The position numbers were made by a program, and so were the translations under genes. DNA of 64,000 bases, taken from the sequence record MK327944.1; one strand, 5' to 3'. Below, one piece after another: positions 2,448 through 45,966 of the stretch. Position 1 is the stretch's first letter. Every line of letters begins with the position of its first letter. Source of the stretch: Escherichia phage vB_EcoM_G2540-3. The notes beneath the pieces were generated by a model that was given only the letters and a program-made list of their open reading frames with translations, was not told where the DNA came from and searched no databases.

Positions 2448-4267
2448 TACTGGCTCATCCATTCTTTACGAAGGTCAGCATTATCTCCCATGAGCATTTC
2501 AAAAAGCTCTTTCCAGTTCTCAGGAAGTTTAACAACATCATATACTGGATTTTGAATCATCTCACGATATTCAGATTTTTCCAAAGAGCCAAGTCCTTTA
2601 ATATAACGGATGCTATGTTTAGGTAGAGCATCTTTAGCACTCTCATATTCAGCGACTGTATAAAACCATTCTTGTTTTTTACCAATCTGTGCGATGATTA
2701 CAGGAGTTTTGACAAAGCGAATTCGTCCTTGCTCAAACAGTTCTGGCCAATTACTAAAAAATCCAAGCAGAGAAGGATAAATGCTTCCTAGACCATCATG
2801 GTCAGCATCAGTCATAATAGCAATATTATGATAATTCAAGTTTTCAGCTTTTTCACCGAGAACTAATCCAGTGATTGCGCAAATATCAAACAGTTCTTTG
2901 TTTTTAAGCATGTCAGCATATGACATACCCCAACTGTTGAGAACTTTACCACGTAATGGATAACCACCGTGAAGTTCTTTATCACGAACATCAATAAGAT
3001 ATCCGATAGCCGAATCACCCTCAGTCAAGAAAAGAGTAGTATCAGCATCTTTACCACAAAGATTCGCTTTAATATGTTTATGAACCTTAGCTTTAGAAGC
3101 CTTTTTAGCTGCTTTAGTTTCTGCTGCTTTTTCTGCCGCTAATTTACGAGCCAAAGCAGCTTCAATAATCGGCATTAGAATTGCTTCATTATTTAGAATA
3201 GCACGTGAAATCTTTTTAGCATCAAGTTGAATATGACTACGGATTTCACCAAATGGAGAAGTCAAACGCTCTTTAGTTTGAGAATCAAATCGCATGTTTT
3301 TCATATCACGGACAAACATAACGATAGTCAAACATTCTTTAACGCGTGCTTTAGTCACATCAATTTTGAACTTACGTTTGATTTGTGGAATAAGGTCTTC
3401 ACAAATATCATCCATAACACAGTCAATGTGATGGCCACCATTCTTAGTGTGAATGTTATTCACATAAGTTAATTGACGAAAACCATCCGGTGAACGACCA
3501 ACCGCAATAGAGCAATTTTCTTGTTCTTGAACGATAGCATGCTCATCATATTGGCGTGCATATTTCTTAAAATTGCCCTGAACCTTTTTACCATTAAAGG
3601 TAAATTGAATATCAGGATAAACTACTGCAAGTGTCTGGAGACGATCTAGTGTAATGTCAAGATAAACTTGGGACAGCTCATTAGTTTCAAATGACATAAA
3701 ATCAGGAATGAAAGTAACGCGAGTTCCTTTCCATTTTCCTGGAATAGTTTCCCATGATTTATTTTCCATGCCATTTGAACAACGAACTACAATATTATTT
3801 TGACCATCACCAGTTTCACCGACAAACATCACAGAAAAAATGTTTGTCAAACTAGAACCAACACCATTCATACCACCGGTGACGCGTTCTTTATCATCAC
3901 CGAAGTTACCACCTGCTTTTGGAATAGTCCAGGCAGCAACAGGACCAGGAATTTCTTCACCAGTAGGTGTTTTGACCATCGCTTGTGGAATACCGCGACC
4001 GTTATCTTCAACTGTTACTTGATTGTTTTTAATAGTAATATTAATTTTATTTGCGAATTTAAACTTAGTACGAATACCTTCATCTACTGAGTTATCGATA
4101 ATTTCATCAATAAGCTTAACAAGACCAGGTACATACTGAACACTTTCCCATTTACCAAACAGAAAGCGCTCATGCATTTCATTAGCAGAAGAGCCAATAT
4201 ACATGCCGCTACGCTTTTTGATATGTTCAATATCGCTCAGAATTTTAATTTCATTCTTAATCATCAC
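2447..4267 (-). CDS. 39: DNA topoisomerase II large subunit gp39 (GyrB-like ATPase) with gp60-equivalent region fused, 606 aa
   Basis: GHKL ATPase motifs (IIDNSVDEG, EDNGRGIP) and TOPRIM-like region; a single 606-aa ORF equals T4 gp39 plus gp60, as in T2/T6. Confidence 0.9.
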   Translation of the reverse strand: MMIKNEIKILSDIEHIKKRSGMYIGSSANEMHERFLFGKWESVQYVPGLVKLIDEIIDNSVDEGIRTKFKFANKINITIKNNQVTVEDNGRGIPQAMVKTPTGEEIPGPVAAWTIPKAGGNFGDDKERVTGGMNGVGSSLTNIFSVMFVGETGDGQNNIVVRCSNGMENKSWETIPGKWKGTRVTFIPDFMSFETNELSQVYLDITLDRLQTLAVVYPDIQFTFNGKKVQGNFKKYARQYDEHAIVQEQENCSIAVGRSPDGFRQLTYVNNIHTKNGGHHIDCVMDDICEDLIPQIKRKFKIDVTKARVKECLTIVMFVRDMKNMRFDSQTKERLTSPFGEIRSHIQLDAKKISRAILNNEAILMPIIEAALARKLAAEKAAETKAAKKASKAKVHKHIKANLCGKDADTTLFLTEGDSAIGYLIDVRDKELHGGYPLRGKVLNSWGMSYADMLKNKELFDICAITGLVLGEKAENLNYHNIAIMTDADHDGLGSIYPSLLGFFSNWPELFEQGRIRFVKTPVIIAQIGKKQEWFYTVAEYESAKDALPKHSIRYIKGLGSLEKSEYREMIQNPVYDVVKLPENWKELFEMLMGDNADLRKEWMSQ

Positions 4268-16514: not shown

Positions 16515-17165
16515 TTATTTTTCCTTTCTTATGAAGTTTTCTATCATATGTCTATAGCAGATATTAGGATAACCTGCCTTGACAGCTATTTTATTAAATT
16601 TTGTGCGCTTAGGTCTATTATTATAAACCCATAATTCATAAAGCGCATCATAACTATTCCATATTTCTCCTCGCCTAGGATTTGGTAAACCATATCGAGG
16701 CGAATTTTTACCGCTAAATCTTCCTTTTCGGGCTTTACTCATATTAGCCTTGGCTTCATCGGATATAATTTTACCTTTATGAGCTAGACGCATTTTGGCT
16801 TTAGTTTCTTCTGGAGTCTTTTTACCTTTAATCCATGACGGCTTGCCATATCTAGGATTATTTTCACCCGAGAAAAGAACAGAGTTTTGGATTTTAAGGG
16901 TTTCTATTAATCTACTTGTTAATTTAACACCTTTATTATATCGCATTAAATTTACAGCATAATGCAATCCTCTCACATCTGGATATATTTTAGTTAATAA
17001 TCTATGAGCTATAAAATGCTCACGCGCAGTTAACTCAACAAGATTGTTTTTGCCATCTGCTCCTCCCATACATCTAGGAATTATATGATGGCGTTCTTTA
17101 TATCCGCCAAGATGCCGGCATTTAGCTTTTGTAATTAAAGCCGAGTAAATTTTTTGGTAATTCAC
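16515..17165 (-). CDS. HNH (Mob-type) homing endonuclease, 216 aa
   Basis: HHIIPRCMGG...NLVELTAREHFIAH motif; MotA-box middle promoter upstream. Confidence 0.8.
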   Translation of the reverse strand: MNYQKIYSALITKAKCRHLGGYKERHHIIPRCMGGADGKNNLVELTAREHFIAHRLLTKIYPDVRGLHYAVNLMRYNKGVKLTSRLIETLKIQNSVLFSGENNPRYGKPSWIKGKKTPEETKAKMRLAHKGKIISDEAKANMSKARKGRFSGKNSPRYGLPNPRRGEIWNSYDALYELWVYNNRPKRTKFNKIAVKAGYPNICYRHMIENFIRKEK

Positions 17166-34426: not shown

Positions 34427-35281
34427 TCACAATGAAGAAAATTCTTTAACTAAAGCCTGTAATGAAGCCTCTATTGGATATCCATTCTTAACTAACATTT
34501 TCCTAAACATTACATGTTTAGGACGATTATATGATATCCACAATTCATACAATTTATCTTTATTATCCCAATGATAGCCTTTTCGTCGAGATGCTATATG
34601 AGCTTTTCTAATCTCCGGATTTTTCCAACTAGCAGCTACTGAATTTGATATAGCTATTTTATATTCAGGTTTTGATAAAGCAGCACGAACAGCCTTTTGG
34701 TGTTTAATTTTATTTTCTTCGTTATTAAACCATTCCCTTGAAGCAATTGAAATTTTTTGTTTTGTTTTAAAATTATTTAATCTTTCTTTGTTATCTTTCC
34801 TATTTTTTGCTACTGAAAAATATTTTAATGCCCTTTCTCTAGCAGCATTTCTATTTTGCGGATTTGAATAATACTGTTGAAGCCTTTTTGATATTGTGTC
34901 ACTTACATCTTGTTTTATAAAACTATATTCAGCAGCTATTAAATCAACTTCGGCTAAAGATAAATTTTTATATGTTTTTCCTGACATCATTCTATTTAAA
35001 GCATTTAGCATTTTTCCATTTTTACCTTTTGCTAATAAGAAATGTGCTTTAAAATGATTAAAATGACTTAAATTAACTAAATTCCATGTAGATTTTAAAT
35101 ATTCAGGAAATATTGATTTAGGAAGCACGTGGTGTGCTTCCGTTTTACCTGGAGTTTTAACAGTTGAATTCATAGAAATAAAATTAATGTAAGACTTGGC
35201 GTCTTCTTCACTCAACGCTAATTTTTCAACTAATTCCTTTATTAAAAATTCATCATTAATGTCAAGTTTAAAATTCTTCAC
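34427..35281 (-). CDS. HNH (Mob-type) homing endonuclease, 284 aa, GTG start
   Basis: EAHHVLPKS...H motif; C-terminal LYELWISYNRPKHVMFRKMLVKNGYP module. Confidence 0.75.
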   Translation of the reverse strand: MKNFKLDINDEFLIKELVEKLALSEEDAKSYINFISMNSTVKTPGKTEAHHVLPKSIFPEYLKSTWNLVNLSHFNHFKAHFLLAKGKNGKMLNALNRMMSGKTYKNLSLAEVDLIAAEYSFIKQDVSDTISKRLQQYYSNPQNRNAARERALKYFSVAKNRKDNKERLNNFKTKQKISIASREWFNNEENKIKHQKAVRAALSKPEYKIAISNSVAASWKNPEIRKAHIASRRKGYHWDNKDKLYELWISYNRPKHVMFRKMLVKNGYPIEASLQALVKEFSSL

Positions 35282-42729: not shown

Positions 42730-42969
42730 TTAAGCCTTTTTATCAAGAACAGCATTCAGCTTGTTAGTAATTTTATCCAGACGCTCATTGAATTCGCTAG
42801 AAGATAAGCCTTTTTCTGGAGAAATCAAACTAATCACGAAAAATATAGCAATAAAAGGAATAAGGAAAATAGCTCCAACTGCCATAAACAAAAAGAACGT
42901 TACGGTTGTAAGAAAATCAGCTAAACCTTTACGAAATTTATACATATTTACCCTTAATTGATTAACCAA
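42730..42969 (-). CDS. small membrane protein, 79 aa
   Basis: Central hydrophobic stretch FLTTVTFFLFMAVGAIFLIPFIAIFFVISL. Confidence 0.5.
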   Translation of the reverse strand: MVNQLRVNMYKFRKGLADFLTTVTFFLFMAVGAIFLIPFIAIFFVISLISPEKGLSSSEFNERLDKITNKLNAVLDKKA

Positions 42970-43059
42970 GCATTGATAAGCACTAAACTGTATTGCGAAT
43001 AAAATTCTGGACCAAAATGAAAAATCATATCATTTATAGTGTCCATAATATAATTCAAT

Positions 43060-43530
43060 TTAATCATGTTTCCACACCCCATCGGTATTTGACCAAAGTC
43101 GCTGATTATCTGATCCTCGCCACAGCTTTTTAGTCGGAAGATTTTTCTCATACTTCCCATCAATAATAACATCAACATATTTAAGCATTTCTAGTTGTTT
43201 AATATCTTCAAACTTATATCCTGTCCACAACCAGATATCTTTCTCCGGAAATCTTGCTTTAACCCAAGAAACTAAATTTGAAATCTCTTCTCGGTTCTGT
43301 GGATAAAGTGGGTCACCACCGGTTAAGGTAAGGCCTTGGATATACGATTTGCTTAAATGGGACGCAAGTTCTTTAACGGTATTCATAGTGAATAACTGTC
43401 CGTTACGAGCATTCCAAGTACTACGATTATAACAACCTTCGCATTTATGCAAACATCCAGTGACGAAGAGAACGACCCTACATCCAGGGCCGTTAACGAA
43501 ATCGCATGGATAAATTCTATCATAATTCAT
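43060..43530 (-). CDS. nrdG: anaerobic ribonucleotide reductase activase NrdG (radical SAM), 156 aa
   Basis: CxxxCxxC cluster CLHKCEGC after MNYDRIYPCDFVNGPG; start trimmed to ATG 43530. Confidence 0.85.
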   Translation of the reverse strand: MNYDRIYPCDFVNGPGCRVVLFVTGCLHKCEGCYNRSTWNARNGQLFTMNTVKELASHLSKSYIQGLTLTGGDPLYPQNREEISNLVSWVKARFPEKDIWLWTGYKFEDIKQLEMLKYVDVIIDGKYEKNLPTKKLWRGSDNQRLWSNTDGVWKHD

Positions 43531-44152
43531 CTTTATATTTCCAAGTATATCCCTTATGAATAGATTGAATTCCTTTGCAACATTTATAAACAGCAGAATG
43601 AAAAAATCCTGCATTTCTTATTTCAGTTGCTCCAGTTAGTTCTATTGTATTTCCGTCTGGTGAATAGCCAATAACCGTTTTGGTGTTAAAGCGATTTCTA
43701 GAACTATTTTTGATATGCTCTTTATGATTAGTAGACAAAGTTCTTCCTGTTAGCCCATCAGATATCCTTTTTCCAAAATCATCAGGAAGAGTTACTTTAG
43801 ACCTAGCTATGCTCATTAGCTTCTTAGTTTTATCGCTTCTTTTTGCGCCACGCTGATTTTCAAATTTCTTAGCTTTTGCATACGCGTATTGTGAAGAAGT
43901 AACTTTTCTATGCTTACTATTACTCATTATCCAATATGCATCATACATCTTTCCACCATATATTTTAGCCAATAAATGGTGAGCAGTATAGTGGGCCTTA
44001 TAAGTTAAAAATACTAAGTTGTCTAAATCATCTGAACCACCCATACTTCTTGGAATTATATGATGAAGTTCATACCCGGCTTTAGTTTGACGGGGCTTAG
44101 ATGGGTGTTCAGCAGAATTAACTAGATTTGAATAGATTCTGTCATAATTCAT
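43520..44152 (-). CDS. HNH (Mob-type) homing endonuclease, 210 aa
   Basis: HHIIPRSMGGSDDLDNLVFLTYKAHYTAH motif; inserted between nrdD and nrdG. Confidence 0.8.
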   Translation of the reverse strand: MNYDRIYSNLVNSAEHPSKPRQTKAGYELHHIIPRSMGGSDDLDNLVFLTYKAHYTAHHLLAKIYGGKMYDAYWIMSNSKHRKVTSSQYAYAKAKKFENQRGAKRSDKTKKLMSIARSKVTLPDDFGKRISDGLTGRTLSTNHKEHIKNSSRNRFNTKTVIGYSPDGNTIELTGATEIRNAGFFHSAVYKCCKGIQSIHKGYTWKYKDEL

Positions 44153-45966
44153 TGGTGTTTAACCCTATGCATGATTTCTTTGTTTTTACCGAGATTAAAT
44201 CCGCGTTCGTTCGGATTTCCCAAATAACCACATGTTCTTCTTATTGTGTTCATCTTTTTAGGATCAGTTTCTCCACAAATAGAACAAACAAATCCGTTTT
44301 CAGTAGGAGTCATTTCATGGGTACTTCCACATGTAAAACATTTATCTACTGGCATATTAACACCAAAATAATCTAAATGTTGTGCAGCATAATCCCATAC
44401 AGCCTCAAGACCCTTTAAGTTATTTTTCATATCAGGAAGTTCAACATAAGAAATGTGACCACCTGTCGCAATGAAATGATATGGCGCTTCACGAGAAATC
44501 TTTTCAAACGGAGTAATATTTTCTTCTACTGAAACATGGAAACTATTAGTGTACCAGCCTTTATCGGTAACATCTTTTACACTTCCATATTTTTCTGTAT
44601 CAAGTTTACAGAAGCGATAACAAAGGTTTTCAGCAGGAGTCGAATATAAACTAAAAGCAAATCCGGTTCTTTCAGTCCACTGTTTAAGATGAGCATTCAT
44701 TTTAGTTAAAATTTCTTGTCCAATATCACGACCGACAAGAATATTCAATTCGTGAATACCAATGTATCCTAAAGACACTGAACTTCTACCGTTTTTAAAT
44801 AACTCAATTATGTCGTCATCAGGTTTAAGACGAACCCCGAATGCACCTTCTTGGTAAAGAATAGGAGCAACAGTCGCTTTAACTCCTTTTAAGGAACTAA
44901 TTCTACACATCAAAGCTTCAAAACATAAATCCATTCGTTCATTAAATAGCTCAACAAATTTCTGTTCATTGAATTGTGTTCCAATATAAGAATCTAACGC
45001 GATGCGAGGAAGATTCAGTGTTACAACACCAAGATTATTACGTCCATCAAGAATTTCATTACCAGTCGAATCTTTCCATACGCTCAAGAAACTACGGCAA
45101 CCCATCGGAGAAACAGGAACTGAAGAACCGGTAATAGCTTTATTGTTCTTAGCTGAAATAATGTCAGGATACATTCTTTTGCTTGCGCACTCTAGAGCAA
45201 GCTGTTTAATATCATAGTTCGGATCGTCTTTATAAAGATTAACACCTTCTTCAACGAACATAACAAGCTTAGGGAAAATAGGAGTTATCCCGTCACGACC
45301 AAGACCTTTAATACGATTTTTCAGAATTGCTTTCTGAATCATTCGTTCAGTCCAGTCAGTTCCCGTACCAAATGTAATTGTTACAAAAGGCGTTTGTCCG
45401 TTTGAACTAAAGAGAGTATTTACTTCATATTCATAAGCTTGGAATGCATCGTATACGTCTTTTTCTGTTTTAGACTGGGCGTAATTCAACGCATCAGCGA
45501 TTTGCCATTTTTCTGCATCTTCAATATGTTTTGCATAGGTGCGTTTAACATAAGGAGAAAGTACTTTGTCTACATTCGCAAAAGTCGTTCCACCATATTG
45601 ATGGGAAGCAACCTGTGCAGTAATTTGTGCCATAATTGCAGTAGCAACACCGATTGATTTAGGAGTTTCAATCTGTGCATTACCAAGCTTAAATCCGTTC
45701 TCAAGCATTCCTTTTAAATCTACTAAACAGCAATTAGTAAATGGAAGAGCAGGGGAATAATCAATATCATGGAAATGGATAATTCCGCTTTCATGCGCTT
45801 TCATAATAAAAGACGGGACCATATTTTTGGCAATGTGTTTAGACACAATACCAGCCATAAGGTCCCGTTGAGTTGGAAAAACACGAGAATCTTTATTAGC
45901 ATTCTCGTTCAAAAGGTCTTTATTAGTTTTATGAATCAATCCTTCAATTTCTTTTTCAATTGTCAT
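44149..45966 (-). CDS. nrdD: anaerobic ribonucleoside-triphosphate reductase NrdD, 605 aa, uninterrupted
   Basis: 605-aa continuous ORF; C-terminal zinc ribbon CFTCGS...CSICG and glycyl-radical region. Confidence 0.9.
   Translation of the reverse strand: MTIEKEIEGLIHKTNKDLLNENANKDSRVFPTQRDLMAGIVSKHIAKNMVPSFIMKAHESGIIHFHDIDYSPALPFTNCCLVDLKGMLENGFKLGNAQIETPKSIGVATAIMAQITAQVASHQYGGTTFANVDKVLSPYVKRTYAKHIEDAEKWQIADALNYAQSKTEKDVYDAFQAYEYEVNTLFSSNGQTPFVTITFGTGTDWTERMIQKAILKNRIKGLGRDGITPIFPKLVMFVEEGVNLYKDDPNYDIKQLALECASKRMYPDIISAKNNKAITGSSVPVSPMGCRSFLSVWKDSTGNEILDGRNNLGVVTLNLPRIALDSYIGTQFNEQKFVELFNERMDLCFEALMCRISSLKGVKATVAPILYQEGAFGVRLKPDDDIIELFKNGRSSVSLGYIGIHELNILVGRDIGQEILTKMNAHLKQWTERTGFAFSLYSTPAENLCYRFCKLDTEKYGSVKDVTDKGWYTNSFHVSVEENITPFEKISREAPYHFIATGGHISYVELPDMKNNLKGLEAVWDYAAQHLDYFGVNMPVDKCFTCGSTHEMTPTENGFVCSICGETDPKKMNTIRRTCGYLGNPNERGFNLGKNKEIMHRVKHQ

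Follow-up and report, generated by a model that had tools for sequence, protein, structure and literature searches.

The shared first codons of mobC and nrdG in T4-like phages: a family motif that recombination has probably used

Results

The nrdD-mobC-nrdG locus

On the minus strand of the 64-kb stretch of phage DNA that we analysed (hereafter the window), three genes follow one another in the order nrdD, mobC and nrdG. The first, nrdD (44149..45966), encodes the 605-aa large subunit of the anaerobic ribonucleotide reductase (RNR), as judged from the list of open reading frames and from the annotation of T4 and its relatives; it is uninterrupted in the window, the intron of T4 nrdD being absent. 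The second, mobC (43520..44152), is a free-standing HNH homing-endonuclease gene of 210 aa, identified by its match to T4 and by Pfam. Over residues 28-50 (..HHIIPRSMGGSDDLDNLVFLT..H..AHH) its HNH domain (PF01844) reached 27.6 bits, the cut-off being 21.4, and passing this curated threshold places the protein among the HNH endonucleases, in the Mob-type phage subfamily. The third, nrdG (43060..43530), encodes the 156-aa anaerobic RNR activase, and Pfam matches to Fer4_12 (2e-50) and Radical_SAM assign its product to NrdG.

By megablast, positions 42900..44800 are 98.6-98.7% identical to T4 and its closest relatives, whose records give the three genes the names nrdD, mobC ('homing endonuclease') and nrdG, and the window's mobC is identical to T4 mobC (NP_049689) over 622/622 compared nt. 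These identities mark the source phage as closely related to T4 and its HNH gene as T4 mobC. A 2010 review (PMC2988022) lists mobC as a free-standing HNH gene with activity 'ND' and target 'unknown', and describes it as overlapping the upstream ORF and having a poor translation initiation region.

Both ends of mobC overlap its neighbors. Where nrdD ends, its TGA stop (44149..44151) runs into the mobC ATG (44150..44152), and the two genes share the four nucleotides ATGA. At the other end, mobC and nrdG overlap by 11 nt, and the mobC TGA stop (43520..43522) is built from nrdG nt 9-11 (TAT GAT, read in the other frame). Because this stop lies inside the nrdG 5' end, the mobC open reading frame depends on an nrdG 5' end that travels with it. 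A search for the exact T4 late-promoter sequence TATAAATA returned only TATAAAT(G) at 43588, within mobC, and the count of sigma-70-like sites was no different from chance. For the mobC start, the nrdG start and an empty junction, the predicted RNA folds of the surrounding 90 nt resembled those of shuffled sequences (z -0.4 to -0.9), and thus lend no structural support to a special regulatory arrangement.

The feature that drew attention to this locus is a match between the starts of the two downstream genes. Codons 1-7 of mobC (44132..44152, ATGAATTATGACAGAATCTAT) and the true codons 1-7 of nrdG (43510..43530, ATGAATTATGATAGAATTTAT) both encode MNYDRIY and are identical at 19/21 nt, exactly as reported in an earlier note made from the sequence; the start-to-start distance, given there as 620 nt, is actually 622 nt. 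The likeness ends at codon 7 (nt 22-60 match at 5/39 positions), and there is no similarity between the two genes upstream of their ATGs. When the 21-mer was sought with up to three mismatches, these two sites were the only ones in the 64-kb window; shuffled sequences gave an expectation of 0.01.

The start is a motif of MobC's endonuclease family

Counted in register against nrdG nt 1-21, the 19/21 identity of mobC (window 44152, MNYDRIY) stands at the head of a series formed by its paralogues: T4 mobE at the nrdA/nrdB junction (MNYQKIY, 17/21), mobD at window 54760 (MNYTKVY, 16/21), and a mobA-like gene with a GTG start at window 17165 ((M)NYQKIY, 15/21). The last two are the paralogues to which the earlier note had pointed in its caveat that part of the match might be family-conserved, and both were indeed found in the window. 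The form M-(N/D)-Y-x-(K/R)-I-Y is the usual N-terminus of MobC's HNH family, whatever the location of the gene, and MobC itself, like mobA, mobD and T4 mobE, conforms to the longer family motif M-(N/D)-Y-x-(K/R)-(I/V/H)-Y-x-x-L-I.

A phmmer search of the full library returned 13,277 relatives of MobC at E<=1e-3, and 113 of the best 160 of these begin M-x-Y-x-x-x-(Y/H). Among these 113 N-termini, position 2 is N in 85 and D in 25, position 5 is K in 48 and R in 37, and position 6 is I in 72; the most frequent form is MNYQRIY, and D at position 4 occurs in only two. One family member (P0064), which sits between baseplate gp5-like and gp6-like genes, has exactly MNYDRIY and shares 18/21 nt with T4 nrdG; further members were located in other unrelated contexts. 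The seven residues of MobC lie within the variation of the family, at roughly 1%, so that the D-R match in T4 could be intrinsic to the endonuclease. The first 12 homologues had suggested that D4-R5 was unique to MobC, an idea we dropped when the larger sample revealed R5 to be common, D4 rare and MNYDRIY present elsewhere.

At the nucleotide level, four mob paralogues all carry ATGAATTA(T/C), and the only matches to the exact mobC 20-mer in a scan of IMG/VR were two unrelated family members. Relatives lacking mobD have other genes at the mobD locus, which therefore offers no clean empty site as a control. The excess of mobC over the family baseline (14-18/21 nt) amounts to only 1-4 nt, and the family motif of the earlier caveat is what explains most of the match.

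A full-length MobC orthologue (P0013), 47% identical, lies directly upstream of an nrdG homologue in a distant phage. It has its own 5' spacer, and its start (MNYHKIY) matches that of the local nrdG (MNYIRIY) at the baseline level of 15/21 nt. Its position beside nrdG implies that the association of mobC with nrdG is old, and fits nrdG as the target. By comparison with this orthologue, the start-on-start arrangement in T4 is a derived state.

Two explanations can be weighed against these data. The plainest is that family conservation plus chance accounts for everything, and that the likeness to NrdG has no mechanistic connection to the insertion. The identities of 15-17/21 nt at other loci speak for this, as do the prevalence of M-x-Y-x-x-x-(Y/H) starts with MNYQRIY as the commonest form, the exact MNYDRIY of P0064 at 18/21 and the unmatched start of the P0013 orthologue; what it fails to account for emerges from the insertion sites described below. 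The second reverses the direction of descent, with the nrdG 5' end of an ancestor having given the whole Mob-type HNH family its N-terminus. The consensus MNYx(K/R)IY is strikingly NrdG-like and the mobC orthologue has long been linked to nrdG, but the HNH motif runs on as Y..IY..LI..A..R, for which NrdG has no counterpart, the NrdG motif runs on as P.DFVNGPG, for which HNH proteins have none, and the members of the family, over 13,000 of them, occupy very diverse contexts. We regard such an ancient capture as highly improbable.

mobC begins on the nrdG start codon of endonuclease-free phages

No gene separates nrdD from nrdG in Shigella phage Sf23 and in nine IMG/VR contigs, where the TGA of the first overlaps the ATG of the second (...aaacaccaATGAATTATGATAGA(A/T)TTTAT), the empty-site junction reading ...aaacaccaATGAATTATGATAGA(A/T)TTTATCCTTGCGAT, and a synthetic empty junction is covered by about 450 phage records. 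At empty sites such as L009 and L031, the sequence ATGAATTATGATAGAATTTAT follows immediately after nrdD. The NrdG N-terminus M(N/K/R)(Y/F)DR(I/F)YPxDFVNGPG is kept across T4-like phages and is conserved at 30 phage loci, endonuclease-free ones included, with looser starts (MNF/MRF/MNY) in phages just 41-60% identical. From this conservation we conclude that nrdG's copy of the shared start is the native one.

The proposal of the earlier note was that the endonuclease gene had inserted between nrdD and nrdG and had duplicated a target site or initiation region in doing so. Its site and position held: the HNH gene is inserted precisely between nrdD and nrdG, on the ATG that nrdG uses in endonuclease-free relatives, with the mobC 5' copy occupying the place of nrdG codons 1-7 at empty sites and an nrdG start regenerated at the mobC 3' end. 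No mobC-specific leader lies between the nrdD stop and the ATG, and the junction must for this reason fall within nt 1-21. The note had also named a pair of observations that would speak against its proposal, namely a different nrdG 5' end in relatives without the endonuclease, together with paralogues that begin alike wherever they are located. The nrdG 5' ends do not differ in this way, since these relatives share MNYDR(I/F)Y, whereas the paralogues do largely begin alike, at 15-17/21 nt.

mobC has probably moved recently between phages

Presence or absence of mobC is polymorphic at a fixed site, with 31 records carrying the gene, about 450 having an empty junction and others containing other endonuclease genes. 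Across all 31 phage records, which come from Escherichia, Shigella, Salmonella and Klebsiella phages, the identity of the mobC body never falls below 99.3%, while its flanks in the Klebsiella phages are up to about 20% different; this disparity points to a recent spread of the gene. Three marks of a homing gene are therefore found for mobC: presence/absence polymorphism, lateral spread and the co-conversion described next.

Three Klebsiella phages carry mobC, and two of them, Wolf_ER13 and Boboto (a Jiaodavirus), were examined. The Klebsiella lineage has a small DUF7415 ORF between nrdD and nrdG, and in both phages it is this ORF, not nrdD, that lies upstream of mobC. Their mobC differs from that of the window at 2/622 nt, both in codon 3 (nt 8-9, TAT to TTC), and TTC is codon 3 of the resident nrdG, whose Klebsiella-type start reads ATGAATTTCGACAGAATCTAC (L005, L028). 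As a consequence, the mobC start in Wolf_ER13 and Boboto (ATGAATTTCGACAGAATCTAT) shares 20/21 nt with the resident nrdG and 17/21 with T4 nrdG. We read TTC as a marker of the resident allele; the opposing pattern would be a ATGAATTAT nrdG start in Klebsiella-lineage phages without mobC.

At the other end of the gene the origin of the sequence is reversed. In both phages nrdG nt 1-113 (43418..43530 in the window) is 100% T4-type, as expected of a co-conversion tract, and the first recipient-type base is at nt 114; over nt 200-471, nrdG shares 96% identity with L005 and 79% with the window. Identity to the window is also 79% at the nrdD 3' end and about 79% for the flanks overall. A resident TTC followed by T4-type sequence places the left crossover within the 11-nt GACAGAATCTA, inside the shared patch. 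On these allelic markers, the transferred DNA is the mobC body plus the donor nrdG 5' end, a footprint of homing-type co-conversion, and the two copies of the shared start are of different origins, the 5' copy following the resident nrdG allele and the 3' copy the donor allele. Because the junctions in Wolf_ER13 and Boboto are the same, the evidence probably represents a single transfer event.

This transfer also bears on a selective explanation, in which mobC and nrdG would have converged on the same first codons, or kept them, for good initiation when coupled to an upstream stop. Neither gene has a well-placed Shine-Dalgarno sequence, both starts overlap or abut an upstream stop, mob genes as a group have been described as having poor translation initiation regions (PMC2988022), and ATGAATTA(T/C) is common to all four mob paralogues. 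Convergence of this kind is nevertheless very unlikely in our estimation: the Klebsiella mobC start acquired TTC in a single step and along with a donor tract, which is recombination rather than a gradual process, the distant P0013 orthologue does not match its nrdG, and there is no RNA structure signal.

A second HNH gene has captured more of nrdG

The same site is occupied in 32 records by a second HNH gene (279 aa), labelled 'mobC' by position in phage PST, whose likeness to MobC is confined to the HNH core (38% over 60 aa). Its codons 1-13 are nrdG codons of the local type and track the resident allele in three backgrounds: the first 40 nt are ATGAATTATGATAGATTTTATCCTTGCGATTTTGTTAATG in PST, as in the empty-site allele of L015/L016; they contain ...TAC...GTGAATG in Paracelsus, as in the empty-site allele of L011; and they are ATGAATTTCGACAGAATCTACCCTTCTGACTTTGTGAATG in Klebsiella phage Roth77, of the Klebsiella type. 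Past codon 13 the gene has its own diverged sequence, and its relatives, for example the mobB-like gene of the window, lack those 13 codons. On its 3' side there follows a recoded, donor-type nrdG 5' end (MNYDRIYPCCFVNGPG), and the gene ends on the same TGA as mobC, at nrdG nt 9-11. An IMG/VR scan for this gene yielded only empty-site nrdG loci and one weak match. To judge from the alleles compared, capture of the nrdG start by the second HNH gene cannot be attributed to the family motif. A segH-like gene is present in SF7 and PM108; segH, a GIY-YIG gene, is said to replace mobC in some T4 relatives.

With these sites in hand, the explanation by family conservation and chance can be judged. 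It leaves unexplained the exact use of the nrdG ATG with the nrdD overlap kept, the 13 nrdG codons of the second HNH gene, and the resident TTC codon of mobC in the Klebsiella phages, a lineage for which it is contradicted. As an account of the whole locus we therefore consider it unlikely, though less so than convergence.

The origin of the repeat as a duplication, the remaining part of the earlier proposal, fares worse. Relative to the empty site, mobC does look like a 622-bp insertion with 21-bp flanking direct repeats (19/21), and 40 nt of nrdG do occur twice where the second HNH gene is inserted. Had the insertion itself duplicated its target site in the manner of a transposon, or copied the initiation region de novo, both copies would derive from one recipient sequence, whereas the 5' copy is of resident type and the 3' copy of donor type; the repeat length is unequal (21 nt for mobC, 40 nt for the second HNH gene); and most of the 21 nt is found in paralogues elsewhere, at unrelated loci. 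No mobC insertion was seen whose two copies agree fully with one another and with the recipient nrdG, so the single recipient origin and fixed length of a transposon-type duplication are both lacking. Homing by double-strand-break repair is not known to make target-site duplications. We give a duplication very little credence.

A synonymous patch in mobC-linked nrdG alleles

Just beyond the shared start, nrdG nt 24-39 (43492..43507) carries a synonymous patch that is a candidate altered target site. The bases A24, C33, T36 and C39 occur in 5/5 mobC-linked T4-type nrdG alleles, and T24, T33 and T39 in 17/17 empty-site alleles; in this sample of 5 + 17, three of the four patch bases (A24, C33 and C39) are found only in mobC-linked alleles. 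The patch looks like a protected target site, but on the allele comparison it could also be just the allele of the donor lineage. In the phage collection there was no empty site with a T4-type nrdG patch, no full-length match to a synthetic junction carrying that patch exceeding 92.5%. Precise excision of mobC between the repeats was also considered, and the empty junction with a T4-type patch that it predicts was not found in the phage collection.

Discussion

Together, these comparisons indicate that the seven-codon match is real, and that what remains of it beyond the family motif is a modest variation on the biology of homing endonucleases, at a locus that is already well known. The explanation that we favor, and consider probable, is that mobC is a homing gene with nrdG as its probable target, and that recombination uses a short microhomology in register so that the gene lands on the nrdG ATG. 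The family start M-(N/D)-Y-x-(K/R)-I-Y would resemble the ancient NrdG start MNYDRIY by coincidence, and recombination would exploit this pre-existing microhomology, with no duplication on insertion. mobC would thereby begin on the ATG that serves nrdG in endonuclease-free phages, overlapping the nrdD stop, and would probably be translationally coupled to nrdD. The moving unit would consist of the mobC body and a donor copy of the nrdG 5' end; with the mobC stop in nrdG codons 3-4, translation of nrdG would probably be re-coupled to termination of mobC.

Several details follow from the same mechanism, each of them conditional on it. Codons 4-5 of T4 mobC (D-R) may have come from a resident nrdG by a similar crossover. 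MobC cleavage, or whatever break initiates the transfer, may fall somewhere from about nt 10 to nt 113 of the recipient nrdG. Genomes that carry mobC may be protected by the synonymous patch at nt 24-39. If the footprints have been read correctly, they place the likely site of MobC cleavage within the initial ~110 nt of nrdG. They also constitute evidence, at the level of sequence, of recent movement of mobC between phages of different host genera.

A broader reading, which we put forward only tentatively, is that the locus exemplifies a third lifestyle for free-standing homing genes in coding sequence, in which the gene is fused in frame to the first codons of its target and carries a recoded spare 5' end in its cassette. 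The fusion would involve 7 borrowed codons for mobC and 13 for the second HNH gene, and the alternatives to it are introns or inteins and gene splitting. If this were true, the endonuclease would take over the translation start of its target, and the recoded spare would restore the gene and might give resistance to cleavage. The borrowed patch would serve as the left homology arm and would permit entry into phages with a different upstream gene, as in the passage from T4-like coliphages into Klebsiella Jiaodavirus.

What the locus adds to general knowledge is of modest size. The gene was already known, and it is the architecture of its insertion that we did not find described: no published account of a shared start with resident and donor copies was encountered in the literature covered, which did not include the key paper of Sandegren, Nord and Sjoberg (2005). 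The locus illustrates how a selfish gene that lacks a promoter can join a translationally coupled operon without breaking it, by taking the downstream start and supplying a new one. Short identical N-termini of neighboring genes can be a recombination scar over a family motif and not evidence of duplication, and a gene that owes the label 'mobC' to its position, as the one in phage PST does, can be another endonuclease.

Among known systems, T4 mobC is the same gene as that of the window; its position is the same, and so are its overlaps, of 4 nt with nrdD and of 11 nt with nrdG. The gene segH, which a 2022 preprint describes as replacing mobC in some phages, sits at the same point between nrdD and nrdG and ends with a stop codon that overlaps the ATG of nrdG. 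It is a nuclease gene of another family than mobC; its start, ATGCATAGG, falls over a diverged nrdD 3' end and includes no nrdG codons. A close parallel is T4 mobE (Wilson and Edgell 2009; PMC2988022), an HNH paralogue without a promoter that targets a neighboring nrd gene with co-conversion, and whose ATG, like that of mobC, overlaps the stop of the upstream reductase gene (UAAUGA), an overlap taken as translational coupling (PMC2988022).

Two further systems resemble the nrdG site in placing an endonuclease within the coding sequence of a host gene. The ORFs of fungal mitochondrial group I introns are in frame with the upstream exon and borrow the start and first codons of their host. They are removed by RNA splicing, whereas nrdG, at a site without an intron, is restored by a second copy of its 5' end in the DNA. 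In Aeromonas phage Aeh1, mobE is reported to split nrdA, so that an endonuclease resides in a reductase coding region with neither intron nor intein and function is kept (Friedrich et al. 2007). Aeh1 nrdA is reportedly left as two pieces that assemble as proteins; here, by contrast, nrdG is whole, its displaced codons having been resupplied.

Apparent exchange and allele recoding at the nrdD-nrdG junction

One compared locus, that of Shigella phage vB_Shso_BCPShso_001 (L059, positions 900-1000), joins a diverged nrdD 3' end (...aaaacATGCATAG) to 'ggttaaacacca' plus mobC, the free-standing HNH homing-endonuclease gene. This nrdD 3' end is normally found with the segH-like GIY-YIG gene (compare L038/L039, 940-960, and window 44153..44175). 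The join is the 9-nt ATGCATAGG, a sequence that makes up the first three codons of segH and that, in the T4-type allele, also provides the nrdD codons M-H-R 16 nt farther upstream; mobC is left 12 nt past the stop codon of nrdD. This arrangement looks like an exchange of segH for mobC by a non-allelic microhomology crossover.

Several loci, that of this phage among them, have an nrdG 5' end of a strongly recoded 'CC' type, ATATACCCGTGCTGCTTTGT, in which Asp10 is replaced by Cys. This allele spans nrdG nt 18-51 (equivalent to window 43480..43513) and was seen in L037, L002, L040, L039, L059 and L063. It borders the second HNH gene, segH (PM108) or mobC (BCPShso) and also occurs at one empty site (ESh24); in BCPShso it forms a short patch within an nrdG that is otherwise T4-type. 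Such a finely interleaved pattern suggests that this ~35-nt part of nrdG has been broken and repaired more than once.

Other genes and elements at the junction

The Yersinia phage PST gene annotated 'mobC / MobC' (L037, 949-1788) is not an orthologue of T4 mobC: the two are only 38% identical, over the 60-aa HNH core, and the PST gene was named by its position. Klebsiella T4-like phages carry an extra DUF7415 ORF of 78-79 aa between nrdD and nrdG (L003, 1032-1271; L040, 824-1057; L005/L028, about 2790-3000), which overlaps the end of nrdD, extends into the start of nrdG, and has a C-terminus that varies with the identity of the endonuclease gene next downstream.

A promoter serving downstream genes is embedded in mobC, according to a 2010 review (PMC2988022). 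The 3' end of mobC in the window holds a late-promoter-like TATAAAT(G) (43588..43594, minus strand), which precedes the start codon of nrdG by ~58 nt and is not an exact match to TATAAATA.

Other HNH genes and nrdD of the window

The fifth HNH gene, mobA-like (16533..17165, minus strand; 62% identity to T4 MobE over 82 aa), was missed by a first-ATG ORF scan because it starts with GTG; its N-terminus reads (M)NYQKIYSALITKAK. For the mobB-like gene (34427..35173), a tblastn search with the second HNH protein gave a match that continues in frame for ~27 codons on the 5' side of the first ATG at 35173 (35174..35254, minus strand). The true start of this gene may therefore be farther 5' than annotated by that ATG, or the N-terminal part may have decayed.

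The nrdD gene of the window (44149..45966) is one uninterrupted ORF of 605 aa. In T4, by contrast, the nrdD coding sequence is joined from two pieces owing to a group I intron that carries I-TevII; without this intron, the window represents a close relative of T4 and not T4 itself.
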